The position numbers were made by a program, and so were the translations under genes. 64,000 nt of DNA, from positions 2,112,001-2,176,000 of the forward strand of contig CM000154.2 of NCBI GenBank assembly GCA_000004695.1. Direction: 5' to 3'. The stretch's first letter is position 1; each line of letters starts with the position of its first letter. The notes below the pieces were generated by a model. It worked only from the letters and a program-made list of their open reading frames with translations. It did no database searches and was not told the DNA's origin. Origin of the DNA: Dictyostelium discoideum (taxonomy: Eukaryota). Positions 2,408-22,208 of the stretch are shown piece after piece.

Positions 2408-2787
2408 TAATTTTTAAAATACCAAAATAAACAATTGTAAATAATAAAATAAAATAAAATTATTTTTAAAGACTAGTGGTTGTTGTAATGGAGACAATTG
2501 CTTGTGTGCTAAAATCAACTACCAACTACAACTTTAGTGCCAATCTCTTCTTGTGATCCAAATGTCAAATCAAATTTATTTTTGATAATTAAAATTATTT
2601 ATTATAATATCTTGGATATTTTAATTGTCTAAAAATAATAATATCTAATATCTAATTTTTTATTTAAAAAGATAACTAAAATTAATAAAAGTAAAAAAAT
2701 ATCAAATTATACAATTTTATAAATAGTATTGTTAATTGTATTTATTTTTTTTTTAAAAAAAAAAAAAAAAAAAAAATGTATTTATTT

Positions 2788-5700
2788 TTATTTAACTGTA
2801 ACTCCTGTTGGTGAAGATTCTTTATTGTTATTTGATTTCTTTTCAACTCTTAATTCAATATCTTCACTTCCAATTGAGGAAGAAGATGATTTATCTTTAT
2901 CTTGTTCGATTAATCTTTCAATATCATCTTTTCTACCAGGTTTTGGACTTGTGGTCTTGGTTATAATTTTATTTGGTGGTGATAATAGACTATTGGTAGT
3001 GGTTGAAGTTGATGCTGGTGGGGATGTTTTTGTTGCGATTGTGGCAGTTGATGTTGAAACAAAACGTGGTGATACTGGATTAGTGGTGGTAGTAGGGGTT
3101 GACTTTGCCATAGTTGTTGCAGTTGATGTATAACGTGGTGATGAAGGATTAACTGATTTTGGATCATTTGATGAAGTTGGTGATATTGGAGTTGGTGATG
3201 TTGTTGTTGGTGATGTTGTTGTTGTTGGAGATAATTTTGAAATTGTAACTGGTGGTTTATTTACAGATGATGTTGTTGTTGAGGTTGTTGAAGTAACTGT
3301 TGGAGCAGTTTTATTGATTGTATTCGTTTCAGGTTTAGAAACTGTGGTTGATGTAGGTTTTGAGGCTGTTGCTGTTGAAATAGTTGCTGATGATTTCAAA
3401 GTTGGAGATATAGAAGGCTTAGCTGTAACTGTTGATGTTGGTGATAATGATGATGATGTTGGTGATTTTGGTGAAACTACTGATGTCGTTGTTTTATTTT
3501 CAGTTGGTGATGCTGATGGTTTAGCGACAGCTGTAGTTGTAGTAGTGGTGGTGGTTGGTGAAATTGGTGATTTTGGTGAAACTACTGATGTCGTTTTATT
3601 TTCAGTTGGTGATGTAGTTGGTGTTGTTGAGAGTGGTTTATTTACAGTTGCTGTAGATTTACTTGTTGCAATGGTTGAAGTTGTTGTTGTTGTTGCTGCT
3701 GCAGCAGGCTTATTAAATGTTGCAGCTATTTTACTAATATTAACGGGTGGTACAACTGTAGTGGTGGGTTTGTTAATTGTTGATGTGGTAGTAGTTGTTG
3801 TACCAACAGTAGCAGCAGCAGGTTTATTGGTTACAGTAGTAGCAGCAGGTTTATTGGTTACAGTAGTAGCAGCAGGTTTATTGGTCACAGTAGTAGTGGC
3901 AGGTTTATTGATTATATTAGTATTAGCAGCAGCAGGTTTGTTGGTTACAGTAGCAGCAGGCTTATTAGTTACAATAGTATCAGCCGGTTTACTGATAGAA
4001 GTCGTATTTGTAATTGGAGTAGTGGCAGCAGGCTTATTAAATGCTGCAGCAAGTTTATTTATATTAGAAGAGGGAGTAGATGGTGCAGTTGATGGTATAG
4101 TTGGTTTATTAATAGTGGTTGATACTGGTTTTGGTGAAATTGTTGTTTTATTTACATTGGTTGTTGATGGTGGTGATGATGATGATGATGATGATACATT
4201 CTCTACTGGTTTGTTGCTATCAGAAGTTGAAATTTTTTCAACTATTGGCGGCGAAGTTTTAATACTTTCTGATGATTTAACTAAAGTGGATGGTTTAATA
4301 ACACTATTTTCATTTTCAACTTTTGGAGTTGGAGGTCTATGAACAGGTGCTTTAGTACCCTCTGATGATTTATTCAAATTACTAATTGGTGTTGATGAAG
4401 TTAAACTTATTGGTGAGGTAATTGGACTTACAGAGTTTGTAGTTGTATTGGAACCACTAATTAATGGAGAGGTGGTAGTTGTAGTAGTGGTTGTGGTTGT
4501 GGTAGTTGTAGTAGTAGTGACTAAAGATGCTATTGTTGATGGTGAAGATAGTGATAGAGATGGAGATGAAGATGGTGGTTGTGATTTCTCATCAGTTTGA
4601 GAGATAACAATTGGTAAGACAATTTTTTCTTCAGTCGTAGTGGTTGTTGAAGAAGAGGATGATGATGATGATGTTGAAACTGGTTGTGATAATTCAGGTG
4701 ATACAATTAATTCTTTTACCTTTTCTTTTTCTTTTTCTTTTTCTTTTTCAGTCTCTTTTTCTTTTACAGTCTCTATTTCTTCTTTTTCTTTTTCAGTCTC
4801 TATTTCTTTTTCTAATTTTTCTTCCTCTTTTTCTACATTCTTTTCTCTCTTTATCACTACCTTTTCTTGGTTTACCTTTTCTACAAACTCTTTTTCAGAT
4901 TCTTTTTCCTTTTCTTTTTCAATTTCTTTGTTATCTTTCTTTTCATGTTGTTCTGATTCTTTTGATGGTGTTATTTGTATTGGTGGTGATGATTCTGGTT
5001 GTGATTGTGATGTCTCTGTTATAATTATTGGAGTTGGTAATGAGGTAATTGATCTTTCTTTTACAACCAATCCCTCATCTTCTTCTTTTGGTTTTTCTTC
5101 TTTTTGTTGTTGTTGTTGTTGTTGTTTTAGTTGATCCATTCTATTATTTGTACCAATGAATTCTTCATCCAATTTACTTTGATCAGAGAAATCGATTGGA
5201 GTTGAATGGGCAATTGTCATTCTTCTTGAAGGTGGTTTAACACTTAACCTCTTTGCCCTGTCTCTTGTTGGGTGTGATAATAATGATGAATTTGCTTTTG
5301 CTTCTTCCTCAGTGACTGGTTGTATTGGTTTAACAGGACTATTATTATTACTATTTGAACCTTGTACAATCATACTACCTCCACCTCTTGCGAATCCTGG
5401 ATTACCACCCATACCAATCAAACCCTCTAATTTTGATGCAAATTCAGAATTCTTTTTAATTGGACTTGAACCACTAACTTTATTATTTGGTATGGCTATT
5501 GAATTTCTGTATGTTATTTTATTAGGTGATCCTGATAAACCACCAATATTATTATTACTATTATTATTATTATTATTATTATTACTAACACCCATATTAT
5601 GTTGAGTTGGTGGAATAATTGGAACAAATGAATGTCTTTTATTTGGTGAAGGTTTATTTGAAGTTGGTGTTATTAAATTTTTAACTGGGGTTGTAGTTGA

Positions 5701-6314
5701 ATTTGGTTTTGGTTCTTCTGGTGATATTAAAATTGGTGGAGTTACTACTTTTTCTTTTTGTTGTTGATCAGGTGATACTGATTTAGGTAATGTCTCTGTA
5801 TTTGATTTTGGTGGTAAAATTGGAGCTTCTTTTTGAATTTCTTTTTCAACCTCTTTTACTTTTTCAATTTCTTTTTTAGTATGTTTTTCACTCTCTTTTT
5901 CCTCCTCTTTCTCTTTTTCCTCATTTTCAATTTTATTTATTTCATCTACTTTTGTTGTTGTTGTTGAAGTGGTTTTTGGAGATAAATCTTCTTTTTCAGT
6001 ATCAGAGGGTGATTTTGTTGTTGAAACTGATGTTGGTTTAGAATCAGCTATGATTGGTATTGGTGGTGATGTTAAATCTACATCAGATGGTGATGATGAT
6101 AAGATTGATTCAGAATTTTTATTATCATTAACTGTTGGTGGTGGTGGTTGTTCAATTTCTTTAACATCATTTGTTTCTTTTGTATCTTTCTTTTTATCTT
6201 TATCTTTTATATCTTTATCCTTTGTTTTATCTTTTTTTGGTTCTTTTGTTGATTTTTCTTTATCATCTTTATTTTTTCTATCAATAAAAATTAAATAAAT
6301 TAATTTAAAACAAT

Positions 6315-6355
<41 letters not shown>

Positions 6356-6427
6356 CTTTGATAAACCTAATTTGTCAAACAAACTTTTTTTCTTTTTTTG
6401 TTTTTTGTCTAAATCTTGTTGCTCCAT
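2788..6427 (-). CDS. Large Ser/Thr/Pro-rich low-complexity (mucin-like) protein, two exons (6357..6427, 2788..6277), about 1186 aa
   Basis: Minus-strand ATG (plus 6425-6427) encodes MEQQDLDKKQKKKKSLFDKLGLS plus 2 nt. The minus-strand donor GTAAGT lies at plus 6351-6356 and the acceptor TTGATAG at plus 6278-6284. The phase-2 junction (aa+a=AAA) was verified by hand. The exon then runs as one open frame (KNKDDKEKSTKEPKK...) into the 2788..5595 ORF. That ORF only appears to begin at 5595 because it is the first Met after the intron stop. The product is KE/EKEK-rich N-terminally and has tandem NKPAATTVT-type repeats with poly-T/poly-S runs. Confidence 0.6.
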
Positions 6428-7307
6428 TTTGGCTATTAAATTGAGGTAACTTTAAATTATCTGTAATGAAAATTAAAAATATAAAAAAAAAAAGATTTTT
6501 TTATTTTTTTTTTTTTTTTTTTTTTTTATTTTATGTTTTGTTTTCTAAGTTGTTTTTTTTTTTTTAAAGTTTTAAATAAATAAATAATAAATAAATAAAA
6601 TAAATGTAAAAGAAAAATAAAAATAATAAAAAAAAAACAAAATTAAAATTAAAATAAAGTGTGGAGGTTTTTAAAAAAAAAAAAAATGAAAAAATAAAAT
6701 AAAAAAATAAAAAAAAATAACAATTAGTGGGTTAACTATGGAATAAACAAAAAATATATATAAATTTTAAAAAATAAAAAAAAAAATAAAAAATAAAAAA
6801 AAGTTAATTTATGTAAAAATTATTATAATGTGTGGTTTAAATGAATGAATTCAAATAAAATTTCTTAATTTGAACTATTTTTTTATAATTTTTTTTTTAA
6901 TTTTTTCAATATTTTTTTTATTTTTTAATTTTTAATTTTTTTTTTTTTATTTGAAATCTGATCAAAAAAATATCTTTTTTTTTTTTTTTTTTTTTTCAGT
7001 TTTTTTTTTTTATGAAATTGTTTTATTAAGGTTTAAAGATTAATGAAGAATATGAGCATTAGTAAAAAAAAAAAAGATAGTTGGAAAATCCAAAAAACCA
7101 GTGTGGCAAAAAAATTTGGTGTTGCCATTACTGTTCGGCAATTGAAAGTTTTGGTGTTTAAGAACTATAATTAGTTTAAATAATGTTTTTGAAAAAAAAA
7201 AAAAAAAAAAAATAAAATATCTTTTTTTTTTTTTTTTATTTTTTTTTATTTTTTTTTTTTTAATTTTAAAAAGATTCGAGTTTAGAAAAATTACAATTTC
7301 GATAAAA

Positions 7308-8353
7308 ATGGGATTAGATGAAAATGAAATAATTAATAATGATTGTAACATTGGAAATGACAATAATAATAATAGTAATATTATATTGAATAGACAATTA
7401 GTTGTAATAGTAACAGGTAGTAGTGATGGTTTAGGTAAAGTTGTTTCTGGAATGCTTGCCAAAACCAATTATTTTGTAATTTTAGCAAATAGAGATTTAA
7501 TTAAAGCTAAATTAGTATTGGATGAAATTTTATCAACAACACCAAATAACAAAAATGTAATTTCAATGAAATTGGATTTATCATCATTTGATTCAATTAA
7601 AGAATTTGTAAATCAATTTGAAAAATTAAATTTACAATTAGATGTTTTAATTAATAATGCTGGAATTTACACACCACCATTTTCATTGCCAGAAGGTTTT
7701 GAAAGTCAATTAATGGTAAATCATCTTGGTCCATTTTTATTAACAAATTTATTAATTAATAAATTTACAGAGTAAATATAAAATATAATAATTTTTCAAT
7801 AATATTTATTATTAATTATTAATTATTAATTATTTTTTTACTTTTTTAAAAAAAATTATATAGGAATGCAAGAATTATAAATTTATCAAGTATTGCACAT
7901 AAAAATTCAGAAATATTCAATGTTGAAGATTTATCATGTAAATCAATTGATAGTTATAATGCAATAAAGAGATATTCAAATTCAAAATTATATGCAATTT
8001 TATTTACAAAAGAGTTGAATAGAATTTTCAAGAAAAACAATTCAAAAATCATTGCATTATCATTACATCCAGGTGTTATTAGTACGACAAATTTATTTAA
8101 AAATATACCAAATTATATAAAACTATTATTAACTATATCAAAACCATTCACAACGACAATTAATACAGCTTCAACTGCAATCTATCGTTTAGCAGTTGGT
8201 GCTGATCCAGAATTACCATTATTAACTGGTGGTGAATATTTTAATATTAATGTACTTGTTGATCCAATACCTCAAGCTTTATCACAAGAGAATTGGAGAT
8301 TATTATGGGCAAAAAGTTGTGAATATTGTAAAATTGATGACATTGGAAAATAA
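7308..8353 (+). CDS. Short-chain dehydrogenase/reductase (SDR) family oxidoreductase, two exons (7308..7771, 7864..8353), about 317 aa
   Basis: It carries the TGSSDGLG (TGxxxGxG) NAD(P)-binding motif, an NNAG motif, and a YSNSK (YxxxK) catalytic motif in exon 2. A GTAAAT donor at 7772 and a TATATAG acceptor at 7861-7863 give a phase-2 junction that rebuilds ...KFTE|NARIINLSSIAH... (a typical SDR N-A-R-I-x-N-x-S-S segment). The stop is TAA 8351-8353. Confidence 0.8.
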
Positions 8354-8575: not shown

Positions 8576-10433
8576 ACTATTGAGGTGCTTCAAAGAGAGC
8601 ATTTTCACCACCATTATTTGATTGTTGATACAATGGATTTGCATTACTACTTGCAAATACTTGTCCTTGATTCGCTTTCCAATGATCATATCCTTTTTTA
8701 CCAGCAAACTAAAAAAAAAAAAAAAATTAGTTAATTATTATTAAAAATTTTGGAATAAAAATTAAAAAAAAAAAATATTTACAATTGCAGCACCTAAAAC
8801 AACAGCACCTACTACAACAACAGAAGCAACAACAGCAGTTGAAACTATTGCACCAGTTTGGCAAATAAATGGTTTAGGATCATAATCTACAGATTTACAT
8901 TTACCAGGTTCAGTTGCAGTTGCATTAACACAAACACCACTTTGACACTTTGAATTATCAGGTGAGCAACGTTTTTCAAAAGTTATACAACCAATAGCTT
9001 CATCACATTGGGAAACTAAACAGAAAGCAGTTGAATTACAAACACGTGGTACAAGTGTACAACCTTTAACACTATCACAAACACCAACTTGACAATTACC
9101 ACTATTTGGACATACCACTGGTTTTGAAACACAACCTTTATTAGTATCACAAGTATATACTAAACATTTATCAGTGGTTGGACATGAAACTGTCTTATTT
9201 GAACATTCACCTTGATTTATATTTGTAGCTGCAGCAACACAAATATTATCAGTACATTCATTACCATCTTGACATTCATTATTTGTTGGTGAACATGAGC
9301 CAGTGGTTGTATTGCATTTCATACAACCTGTACATTTTGTAGTTATATTATGGGTTATTAAACCAGTGGTTTCATCACAATGGTCATCGGTACATGGATT
9401 ACCATCATCAATTTCATCTAATGGAAGTGGTGAACATACTGATGTACCATTTGAAGCGGTAACACAATTATTCTTTTGACATTTATTTAATACACAACCA
9501 CATGAACAAACTGATGGATCTAATTTCTTTATTGTACATACACCAGCATTACAAACATTTTGTTCACATGAATCTGGACCTTGTTTACATAATGGTTGAG
9601 AAACACAGCCACTATTAATATCACAATAATAGACTTTGCATGGATCATTACCCAATTCAGCTGCACAAGTACTATTTGATTTGGTTTGACATTGGCCATT
9701 TGAACAAGCACCTGTATTACATGGATTATGAGCTGAAGTACATGATGAAGTATACAAACATCCACTTGATGGGTCACATGGTTTTAATGTTAAACATTGA
9801 GATGATTTATCATCACATTTAATTGATGTTGGTGTACATTGACCACTTTTAGAATCACATGTATTATTTGTACACATATCAATTGATGGACATGATACTG
9901 GTGCATGTTGACAAAGATCTGAAATTGAAAACCCTGCTGGAATAATTGTATCACGTGGTGGGCATGAATCAATTGTACATAAATCACCATCATTACAATT
10001 TACTACTGGATCACAACAAGTTGAACCATCACCATAACAAACACCACAATAATCATAAAACTATATTTTAAAAATTAAAAAAATTAAAATTTAAAATTAA
10101 AATTATTGTTATTATTTTAAAATATTATATACATATAATCAATTTTTTTTACTTACTGGACAATATGCTTGAATTGAAGTTTCAATTCTAATTGTTGATT
10201 TGGTTGTATGTCTTTCACAATAAAAGAAATCAAATGTATAATCTTTATTTTTTGTTAAACCCAATGTTGTTAAATCAATATTCTTACCTGCAGCTTCATG
10301 AAGACCACCCAAATCAATAACTAATTGATCATTGATAAATACCCATACATCATCATCACCAACAAAATAAAATACTTCATTACCAGTATATGTAAAACGT
10401 GTATTTATCTAAAAATTTTAATTATATTAGATT

Positions 10434-18047: not shown

Positions 18048-21000
18048 ATGTATGGTTTTAATATTGGTAAAGCAGAAAATGCTGGCTTACATTTAGATAA
18101 TAAAAAAAGCGAAAATAATAATAGTAGCAACAATGAATTACATAAAGTTATTAATACGATTAATAATGGTTTTCAATTCAAAGATGACGATGATGAAGAT
18201 AATGAAAACAATTTAAATAATGAATCAAGTTCAGATGAAGAAAATCAACAACAACAAAATAATAATAATAATAATAATAAAAACCAATTCGAAGATGATG
18301 ATGAAGATCAAGAAGAAGAGGAATATATTAGTGGCGATGATTTAAATAATAATGGTCAAGAATCAGACGATTATGAAGAAGAAGAGGAAGATGATGATGA
18401 AGATGAGGAAGAAGAGGATGAAGAAAGTAAAAAATTAAACTATGATTCATTCTTTGGTGCAAATATGTCTCATAATATGGACTTTTTAAATTCTCAAAAT
18501 ATTAATTCTCAAATTGGTTTAATGGATCCACATTTACATAGTTCTCAATTAAACTTTGAAGAACCACAAGAAGAAATTGAATTACCTGCTCATGCCTGCG
18601 CGTAAGTATATTTATTTTATATTTTAATTAAAATATTTTCTCTAACTCTTTTTCTTTTATTTATTTAATTAAAGATATTGTGCAACACATGAATTATCAA
18701 CAGTTGTTAAATGTATGCATCCATCATGTGGTAAATGGTTTTGTAATGGTAAGGGTAAAACTAAATCATCACATATTATAACACATTTAGTTAAATCCAA
18801 ACATAAGGAAGTAGCATTACATCCAGAGAGTTCATTTGGTGATACAACATTGGAATGTTTTAATTGTGGTTGTAAGAATATATTTTTATTGGGTTTCATT
18901 ACAGCTAGAACCGAATCAGTTGTTGTTTTATTATGTAGAGATCCATGTGCATCTGGTCCATCGAAAGAGGTCAATTGGGATATGAGTAGTTGGCAACCTT
19001 TGATCAATGGTGGTGAAAAAGCATTTTGCAGTTGGTTAGTTAAAACACCATCACAAGTCGATAGTGAACGTTCAAGACAAATTACAATTCAACAAATTCT
19101 TAGACTTGAAGAGTTTTGGAAAATGGATCCAGAGGCCACACTACTCGATATTGAAGCACCAAGATCCGATGATGAAAAGCCAGCAAGCACCCAATTGGCC
19201 TATAAAGATGCCTATGAATATCGTGAGATCATTTCACCCCTAATTGAATTGGAAGCAAAACACGAGAAGGAATTAAGAGAATCCCTCTCTCAAAGTGGTA
19301 TTTCAATAGAGTGGAGTCAAGGTATTAATAAACGTTACACTGCAACATTTCCATTTAGTAGAAGTGATTTAGAATTTAAAGTTGTACCAGGTGATGAATT
19401 AAAACTTCAATTCATTTCATCCACTGGAGGCGTTATTGAATGGGAGGATACTGGTAGAGTAATTCATATCGATGATGAAAATCTATTATCATTGGAAACT
19501 AAGTCAAGGTGTAGCTTTGATTCAGGTCCAAAGGGTTCCTATAGAATGGAGATGGTTTGGCGTTCAACTTCATCTGAACGTATTTTAAGTGCAATGAAAT
19601 CATTTGCAATTAAAGAGCAAGCATTATCATCTTATTTATACCATGCATTATTAGGTCATCCAGATATACCACCAGCCCCATTGGATATTCAATTACCTAC
19701 AAATTTCCATTTAAAGAATTTACCACGTTTGAATGAATCACAAATTAGTGCAGTAAATAAAGTATTAACAGCACCATTATCATTGATTCAAGGTCCACCA
19801 GGTACTGGTAAAACTGTTATCTCTTCATTTATTATCCATCATTTGGTGAAATATGTCAAAGGTAATGATAAAGTTTTAGTTTGTACACCATCAAATGTTG
19901 CAATCGATCAACTCACTGGTAAACTTCATGAAATTGGTTTAAAGGTTGTTAGATTAAGTAGTAAACTTAGAGAGGAGGTCGCATCACCTGTTGAACATCT
20001 TACACTTCACAAACAAGTTTATAAATTGGATCAAATGGGTGATGGTGAACTTGGTAAACTTAGAAAGTTAAAAGAAGCATTTGGTTCACTCAGTAATGAA
20101 GATGAAAAACGTTATATCTACTTACGTCGTATGATGGAAATGGCGATCCTAAGAAAAGCAGATGTAATTTGTGCAACTTGTGTGGGTGCTGGTGATCCAC
20201 GTCTATCACAATTCCGTTTCCCTCATATTCTTATCGATGAATCAACTCAAGCCTCTGAACCAGAATGTTTGATTCCATTAATGATGGGTGCTAAGCAAGT
20301 CATTCTCGTTGGTGATCATCGTCAATTGGGTCCTGTATTACTTTGTAAAAAAGTAGTTGATGCTGGTCTTTCTCAATCACTCTTTGAACGTTTAATCTCT
20401 TTAGGCCATCATCCTGAACGTTTAACAATTCAATATCGTATGCATCCATCGCTCACAGAGTTCCCTTCAAATACCTCTTACGAAGGTCAATTGGTTAGTG
20501 AACTATCACATACTGATCGTGATTCTCAATCGAAATTCCCATGGCCACAACCAAAAGATCCAATGTTTTTCTTTAATTGTACTGGTAGTGAAGAAATTTC
20601 TTCATCTGGTACCTCTTTTATTAATACTACCGAGGCTTCAATTTGTGAGAAAATCGTTACAAAATTCTTAGAGTTGGGTTCATTACCTGGTCAAATTGGT
20701 ATCATTACACCTTATGAAGGTCAACGTGCTTACATTACTAGTCATATGCAAAAATCTGGTAAATTAAATCTAGAACTCTATAAATCCATTGAGGTTGCAA
20801 GTGTAGATTCTTTTCAAGGTAGAGAAAAAGATTATATTATCCTCTCTTGTGTACGTTCAAATGATTATCAAGGTATTGGTTTCCTTCAAGATCCAAGACG
20901 TTTAAATGTAGCTCTTACTCGTGCTAGATTTGGTTTAATAATTTTAGGTAATGCAAAGGTACTCTCAAAAGATCCACTCTGGAATTCTTTAATCTCTCAC

Positions 21001-21583
21001 TTTAAAAATAAAAATGTTTTGGTAGAGGGTTCTCTTGCAAATTTAAAACAAAGTCCTGTAATTTTACAAAAACCAAAAAAACTCTATGGTCAAGGTAAAC
21101 TTCCAATTCCAGGTCAAAATTCAAATAGTTTTAATTATGATCGTGAACATATTGATCCAAATATTGGTATGAATATGGTTTATGGTATTTCAAATAATAA
21201 TATTAATAATAATAGTAATAATATTAATAATAATAATAATAATAATATTAACAATAATATTAACAATAATAATAATCAAAGATTTAACACCCAAGATGGT
21301 AGATATTCAAATTCACAAACTTCTTCATCAAGTCAAACTTATTATGGTTCAACAAATTCAAGTGGTAATACTATTAATAGTAATCAAAATCAATTCTTTA
21401 ATACACCATCTTCTTATTCTGCAAATACTGGTTCATCTTATCAATATAGATTCCAACAATATCAACAATTACAACAACCACAACCACAACAACAACAACA
21501 ACCACAACAACAACAACAACCACAACAACAACAACAACCACAACAACCACAACAACAACAACCACAACAACAAAAACAATACC

Positions 21584-21645
<62 letters not shown>

Positions 21646-21807
21646 AAGCAACAACCACACCAACAATACCAATCACAAAAGCAGCAACAACAACAACAAT
21701 ACCAACAACCTCAACAATATCAACAACAAAACCAACAATACCACCAATCACAACTTCCACCAAAACAATACCACAATCAACGATTTAATAATAATAATAA
21801 TAACAAT

Positions 21808-21877
<70 letters not shown>

Positions 21878-22089
21878 TTAACAACAATAATTCTAAAAAC
21901 CAAAACCAAAACCAATCACCACGTCGTTCTCCTGTGGTTGGAACTCTCCAGCTACATTGCAAGTTTGATTCACAACCAAATAATAACAAACATATTAGTG
22001 ATCCAAATCAGCCACAAATCTCAAATCCTAATATGTCCATTCCTCTTAGCCAATCTTTAAGCTTTAATGATTTATCTCAAGTAAGTACA

Positions 22090-22136
<47 letters not shown>

Positions 22137-22208
22137 ATAATAATAATAATTCTAACCAAAATTTTATTATAGGAACAATTTAACAAATCAAATTCAAGAA
22201 AAGATTAA
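18048..22208 (+). CDS. upf1: Regulator of nonsense transcripts 1 (UPF1 RNA helicase), three exons (18048..18601, 18675..22080, 22173..22208), about 1331 aa
   Basis: The CH-rich zinc-knuckle region (HACAYC.., CGKWFCNGKG, LECFNCGCKNIFLLGF), the SF1 helicase motifs (GPPGTGKT, DESTQASEPE, VILVGDHRQLGPV, GFLQDPRRLNVALTRAR) and overall collinearity identify UPF1. Exon 1 (184 codons, acidic D/E/N-rich) joins at GTAAGT 18602 / AAAG 18673-18674 and rebuilds the conserved ...ELPAHACA|YCATHE... The 3' splice (GTAAGT 22081; TTATAG acceptor 22171-22172) removes the poly-A-derived KKKK tail of the raw ORF. The C-terminal region has long poly-N and poly-Q tracts. Confidence 0.85.

Follow-up and report, generated by a model that had tools for sequence, protein, structure and literature searches.

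The minus strand of a 64,000-nucleotide stretch of Dictyostelium discoideum DNA (GenBank assembly GCA_000004695.1, contig CM000154.2; hereafter the window, to which all positions refer) carries a repeat-rich gene at 2788..6427 that raises the question of how long its product is and where in or outside the cell that product acts. A listing of open reading frames (ORFs) offers a single uninterrupted ATG-initiated ORF for this gene, of 935 amino acids (aa), starting at a Met codon at 5595. The original prediction, made from the sequence alone, held that this Met is merely the first one after an intron, that a small and hidden 5' exon extends the product by about 250 residues to more than 1100, and that the mucin-like protein may in truth be an intracellular or nuclear disordered protein. 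We conclude that the locus is very probably the annotated D. discoideum AX4 gene DDB_G0288915 (dictyBase protein DDB0306662, UniProt Q54I94, GenBank EAL62981.1), a two-exon gene whose 1186-residue product is a disordered intracellular protein phosphorylated when the cell senses chemoattractant.

Identity and exon structure of the locus

The gene consists of two exons on the minus strand separated by a single intron (Table 1). The spliced coding sequence is 3561 nt long, contains 0 internal stops and translates to 1186 aa, the phase 2 junction between exon 1 and exon 2 creating an AAA (Lys) codon. Residue 252 of this product is the Met encoded at 5595, and the N-terminal extension beyond the 935-aa ORF measures 251 residues.

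Agreement with the curated gene was examined by position and by residue numbering. Table S3 of Nichols et al. 2019 (PMC6397043) contains the FASTA header 'DDB0306662|DDB_G0288915', which places the gene on chromosome 5 at 2114788 to 2118427. Subtraction of an offset of 2,112,000 (33 x 64,000) converts this span of 3640 bp to exactly 2788..6427, with the gene start at 2118427 falling on 6427; counted in 64-kb tiles along chromosome 5, the window (2,112,001..2,176,000) is therefore the 34th. The supplements of the same paper assign the phosphosites S1070 (KSVNPSSPRYTST) and S1093 (TTTNPVSPRFVST) to DDB_G0288915, and its tables also list S283 (KITYRNSIAIPNN) and S692 (PSTLVKSSESIKT) for this protein. 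In the spliced model the four sites fall at residues 283, 692, 1070 and 1093, all in agreement with the publication. This numbering is reproduced by removing exactly 79 nt from the gene, and only the intron at 6356..6278 satisfies it. Since the start, the end and the residue numbering are the same, the curated exon structure must be that of the originally predicted model, and in the span and the four site numbers no difference from DDB_G0288915 / Q54I94 was detected.

The two-exon gene model with its 1186-aa product is confirmed. The 71-nt 5' exon, the GTAAGT donor, the phase 2 splice and the acceptor at 6278-6284 were all reproduced base for base, so that reasoning from raw sequence proved accurate to the base. 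For a genome scan there is nothing novel in this: the supposedly hidden exon and the 1186-aa product are already known from public annotation, and the protein has already been detected by mass spectrometry. In a 2026 proteome paper the gene appears as EAL62981.1 / Q54I94, a 'hypothetical/uncharacterized protein'. The locus is an ordinary Dictyostelium gene of low complexity whose small first exon had been annotated correctly.

Composition, predicted structure and homology

The 1186 residues are rich in Thr (16.7%), Ser (15.1%), Lys (12.0%), Pro (10.4%) and Glu (8.1%), with Thr, Ser and Pro together accounting for 42%, and contain 0 Cys and 0 Trp. Three zones had been proposed for this sequence, of which the nonapeptides and the poly-Thr and poly-Ser stretches were recovered; the single charged zone was replaced by two K/E-rich zones and a K/D-rich N-terminus (Table 1). 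The nonapeptide array had also been described as long, whereas it comprises about 7 tight units set within a looser stretch punctuated by NKP and SKP. Tandem Repeats Finder reports it as a 27-nt array at 3806..3991 with 6.8 copies and 77% matches, and periodicities of 6, 27 and 45 nt run across 4711..4834 in the second K/E-rich zone. Replication slippage is the best explanation for the NKPAATTVT array and the poly-S/T tracts, which would be low-complexity linkers expanded in this way; such expansions are common in this genome. Between the charged zones, residues 252-414 contain the basophilic-kinase consensus sites KRLS369 and RRMT378, with KRHS240 just upstream of the stretch, and include the phosphosite S283 (codon at 5502..5500). 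At the C-terminal end, a charged tail follows the duplicated module described below.

Structure prediction with AlphaFold2 used the exon-2 product (1162 residues) as a single sequence and returned a mean predicted local distance difference test score (pLDDT) of 35.6, with 1014 of the 1162 residues below 50. Secondary structure was confined to three helices, at residues 137-171, 393-414 and 472-546 in full-length numbering. The first of these (113-147 in exon-2 numbering) had pLDDT values of 52-56, and the last (448-522) was modelled as one uninterrupted 75-residue helix with values of 64-80. Outside the K/E-rich helices, the protein is predicted to be disordered. Residues 472-546 resemble an ER/K single alpha-helix (SAH) in the predicted length and charge of the helix, 71% of which is Glu, Lys or Arg, but they differ in holding regularly scattered Val, Ile and Leu and almost no Arg, and a coiled coil is equally possible. 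This segment is accordingly named here only as a candidate single-alpha-helix or coiled-coil spacer.

Searches for relatives were negative throughout. No Pfam family was found at E <= 1, and an exact-sequence look-up found neither the 1186-aa product nor the 935-aa ORF in a collection of 15 billion proteins. A word-indexed homology search with the whole protein gave no significant match, its list of 8000 candidates being saturated by low-complexity words, and the same search with the most complex 141 residues gave 20 candidates and no match. Exhaustive HMMER searching of 1.84 billion representatives returned 5 matches, all of them unrelated repeat proteins whose similarity is to the nonapeptides (NKPAATTVT) or to the K/E zones, among them a vertebrate zinc-finger protein bearing EEPAQTSYT repeats, and no true homologue. 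As was to be expected, there was no megablast match against phages.

Chemoattractant-induced phosphorylation and proposed role

DDB_G0288915 is one of the 78 'core phosphoproteome' proteins whose phosphorylation increases at least 2-fold in response to both cyclic AMP (cAMP) and folate, and it carries the p[S/T]PR mark (Table 1 of PMC6397043). After 45 s of folate stimulation in wild-type cells, S1093 and S1070 rose by log2 values of 3.7 and 2.8 (7- to 13-fold; Table S2 of PMC6397043), and in erkB- cells both sites are given as 'ND' (not detected). S283 and S692 are listed in the same paper as phosphorylated and unresponsive to the stimulus. In published data the protein was quantified at aggregation and at culmination in both replicates, at a low abundance of ~1e6 compared with ~1e9 for nucleoside diphosphate (NDP) kinase.

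The two chemoattractant-induced sites are carried by tandem copies of a 23-residue module, NPSSPRYTSTATTMAKSTPTTTT and NPVSPRFVSTSTATIATKTSP. The main-text passages and supplementary tables of PMC6397043 that were searched make no mention of this duplication.

Phosphorylation within seconds by a route that PMC6397043 assigns to the cytosolic mitogen-activated protein (MAP) kinase ErkB, together with the lack of a secretion signal, places the protein inside the cell. The view that it is a disordered phosphoprotein of the cell interior rather than a mucin is supported, and the suggestion of an intracellular or nuclear location in the original prediction thereby holds, given the 45-s phosphorylation at the SPR sites, the mean pLDDT reported above, and a sequence with no signal peptide, membrane segment or Cys. 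With its chemoattractant-induced p[S/T]PR sites that are not detected in erkB- cells, DDB_G0288915 behaves like the ErkB targets EppA, GefM, ForA and GacG (PMC6397043); it differs from most members of the ErkB core set, in which GEF, GAP, kinase or other signalling domains are present, in having no recognisable domain. The protein would then be a cytosolic or nuclear intrinsically disordered component acting downstream of chemoattractant receptors and a putative direct substrate of ErkB. Its duplicated C-terminal NPxSPR[YF] module would probably serve as a regulated switch, its K/E helices probably as stiff spacers, and its polybasic first exon probably in nuclear or membrane targeting, for which the Lys-rich N-terminus may provide either a signal for nuclear localisation or a polybasic patch that binds membranes.

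Several points weigh against this interpretation. The case for the 5' exon rests on sequence logic together with agreement with the curated annotation, and the searchable phosphoproteome and proteome supplementary tables contain no peptides from residues 1-251. The AlphaFold2 model was built from a single sequence, an input that by itself yields low confidence. The missing homologues say little on other dictyostelids, because the library searched was one without this protein, as seen from the lack of a self-match. A site 'not detected' in erkB- cells is weaker evidence than one detected but unresponsive, and direct phosphorylation of DDB_G0288915 by ErkB is something that we only infer. Finally, no mutant is described for this gene, as for 48 of the 78 core proteins (PMC6397043).

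An alternative to the role proposed above is that DDB_G0288915 is an expressed, fast-evolving, low-complexity orphan with no specific role, the SPR phosphorylation being a bystander event on an accessible disordered chain. The failure to find a domain or homologue and the low abundance fit such a protein, as does the fact that no mutant phenotype is known (PMC6397043), and about 0.5 [ST]PR motifs are calculated to occur by chance at this composition. The protein contains only two such motifs, and these are the sites at S1070 and S1093. Both lie within the duplicated module of 23 residues, the flanks of which are conserved (NPxSPR[YF]xST), both respond strongly, and every core-set candidate examined in PMC6397043 had a role in chemotaxis or motility. 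On this balance we consider a bystander role unlikely.

A further possibility combines several of these features in an 'intracellular mucin', a domain-less chemotaxis scaffold which would be directed to the nucleus or to the negatively charged inner membrane by its polybasic exon-1 patch, O-fucosylated by Spy on its long Ser/Thr tracts, and switched by ErkB through the NPxSPR[YF] module. The nucleocytoplasmic proteins on which the O-fucosyltransferase Spy acts in Dictyostelium, Toxoplasma and plants (PMC11853108) likewise have Ser/Thr-rich disordered tracts and no secretion signal, a likeness that serves as a lead only, and a search of one supplementary file of that paper did not find the protein. 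We regard this proposal as distinctly improbable; if true, a single disordered chain would integrate glycosylation with phosphorylation by a MAP kinase.

Support for the N-terminal extension

The confirmed two-exon model must also be weighed against the reading that only the 935-aa ORF from Met-5595 is made, with the small exon and the open frame ahead of that Met being coincidental or an untranslated leader. As already described, this ORF is the only uninterrupted one with an ATG start, and the searchable supplementary tables lack peptides from residues 1-251. The 227 codons upstream of it argue in the other direction. Across 5596..6276 there are 0 in-frame stops, whereas the remaining sense frames have 12 and 34 and the antisense frames between 3 and 25; an in-frame stop in 5596-6277 had been named beforehand as refuting the extension, and none of the 227 codons is one. 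Composition-matched shuffling of this stretch (20,000 shuffles) gave a mean of 16.9 stops and a minimum of 4, with no zero-stop cases, and the analytic probability of a 227-codon open frame is ~3e-8. The GC content of the same stretch is 43%, 36% and 6% at codon positions 1, 2 and 3, and a third-position value of about 6% is typical of Dictyostelium coding sequence. In addition, the published site numbers (S283 and others) demand 251 further N-terminal residues, and the annotated gene span begins at 6427. A product limited to the 935-aa ORF is, in our judgement, highly implausible.

Apart from ATG-6427, the minus strand has no ATG over ~630 nt upstream, and a read from ATG-6427 without splicing stops at the donor itself (AAG followed by TAA). 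We enumerated 61 frame-compatible GT..AG pairs, of which only 6356/6278 combines a GTAAGT donor with an acceptor located where the open frame begins. All other pairs were rejected as alternative 5' structures for poor donors (GTTTGT, GTTTGA, GTTTAT) or the loss of coding-like sequence, including a second GTAAGT pairing that would excise 466 nt, among them 129 open coding-like codons. Taken by itself the GTAAGT hexamer, which the original prediction had called a perfect donor, carries no weight, as it occurs 14 times per strand in the window where ~20 are expected by base composition and is thus not enriched. The intron has a GC content of 8.9%, versus 24% for exon 1 and 28% for the first 300 nt of exon 2, and its length of 79 nt fits the class formed by the 12 other GTAAGT intron candidates of the window (73-219 nt, 3-15% GC).

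The remaining reading, that of a genuine secreted or cell-surface mucin-like glycoprotein (e.g. of the slime sheath or spore coat) with Pro/Thr/Ser repeats O-glycosylated in the Golgi, is hardly credible, for the tandem T/P/A-rich nonapeptides, the poly-T/poly-S runs and the 42% of Thr, Ser and Pro give the protein a likeness, in composition only, to mucins of the secreted and membrane-bound types and to those spore-coat proteins of Dictyostelium that have mucin-like domains (Pro/Thr/Ser tandem repeats and S/T homopolymers), whereas the maximum 19-residue Kyte-Doolittle hydropathy over the whole protein is 0.78, which leaves neither the signal peptide whose absence had been predicted nor a membrane segment, N-terminal or internal, and the N-terminus, MEQQDLDKKQKKKK, is strongly charged and fails as a signal peptide. 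Mucins and spore-coat proteins carry Cys-rich domains, whereas this protein, with 0 Cys and no Pfam domain, has no VWD/CK flanks and no SEA/transmembrane (TM) anchor. Its SPR sites are moreover phosphorylated within 45 s through the cytosolic ErkB pathway (PMC6397043).

Features of the gene and its surroundings

Table 1. Features of DDB_G0288915, with positions in the 64,000-nt window and residues in full-length (1186-aa) numbering
Feature	Position	Strand	Description
Exon 1	6357..6427	-	71 nt; ATG at 6427..6425; codes MEQQDLDKKQKKKKSLFDKLGLS plus AA, the first two bases of Lys-24
Intron	6278..6356	-	79 nt, phase 2, spliceosomal; donor GTAAGT at 6356..6351, 28-nt T run, acceptor TTGATAG at 6284..6278
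Exon 2	2788..6277	-	3490 nt; stop TAA at 2790..2788
Stop-free stretch upstream of first in-frame Met	5596..6276	-	227 codons; missed by a simple ORF call
Lys-rich, K/D-rich N-terminal zone	6169..6427	-	Residues 1-60, with 24 K and 15 D+E; spans the intron; includes KKQKKKKSLFDKLGLSKK
K/E-rich zone 1	5836..5940	-	Residues 137-171, in an S/P/T linker; E+K+R fraction 0.69; helix predicted with low confidence
Part of the most complex segment (residues 252-470)	5107..5595	-	Residues 252-414; poly-N run, Gly-rich stretch, predicted helix 393-414
K/E-rich zone 2	4711..4935	-	Residues 472-546; E+K+R fraction 0.71; 75-residue helix predicted
Poly-Thr run	4475..4515	-	Inside the S/T/P-rich zone (residues 546-740), which has an 18-residue poly-Thr run
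NKP/SKP-punctuated zone	3634..4110	-	Residues 747-905; 12 units, flanked by two K[LI]AA[AT]FNKPAA motifs
Tight nonapeptide array	3802..3993	-	Residues 786-849; ~7 units [NS]KPA(A/T)T(T)VT; DNA period 27 nt
SPTENKTT(T)SVVSPKSP	3457..3615	-	2 copies 34 residues apart, within residues 912-964; 34-residue duplication SPTENKTTSVVSPKSP
Duplicated 23-residue module	3019..3159	-	NPxSPR[YF]xST..TAT; S1070 codon 3141..3139, S1093 codon 3072..3070
Putative polyadenylation signal	2781..2786	-	AATAAA directly after the stop codon; as read from the sequence

The window has a GC content of 22.6%. Among the products of its long ORFs are actin, an Arp1-like protein, a UPF1-type helicase, valyl-tRNA synthetase and pantoate-beta-alanine ligase, all bearing poly-N/poly-Q tracts, a combination characteristic of D. 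discoideum. Scanning the entire window for Rfam families and tRNAs gave no match. Opposite DDB_G0288915, the plus-strand ORFs at 3314..4342, 4640..5134 and 5969..6298 (up to 342 aa, V/G/A/D-rich or F/S-rich) were rejected as antisense artefacts, whose frames are kept open only by the low-complexity Thr/Ala/Pro or Lys/Glu codons of the sense strand.

Upstream of the gene, a 140-bp island of 28% GC (7035..7175) lies within an intergenic region of ~9% GC between two divergent genes, DDB_G0288915 (ATG at 6427, minus strand) and a short-chain-dehydrogenase-like gene (ATG at 7308, plus strand). The island contains a 33-codon plus-strand ORF with its ATG at 7043, MKNMSISKKKKIVGKSKKPVWQKNLVLPLLFGN, and has no Rfam match; candidate identities for it are a small gene, a leader exon and a non-coding RNA.

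Two further loci of the window drew attention. The UPF1-type helicase gene (18048..22137, plus strand) is interrupted at 18602..18674 by a 73-nt candidate intron of the GTAAGT type, and the last ~350 residues of its product are almost pure poly-Q/poly-N, repeats that also yield an overlapping out-of-frame 292-aa ORF at 21182..22060. On the minus strand, 8762..9877 holds a Cys-rich repeat ORF of 371 aa whose C-terminal segment is hydrophobic and whose start lacks an obvious signal peptide, and the GTAAGT intron candidates at 10156, 10677 and 11085 upstream of it suggest that it may have further 5' exons.

Implications

The analysis ties a 'hypothetical protein' to a role that can be tested, as one of the 48 unstudied members of a core set centred on ErkB, whose regulated sites lie in a duplicated C-terminal module.

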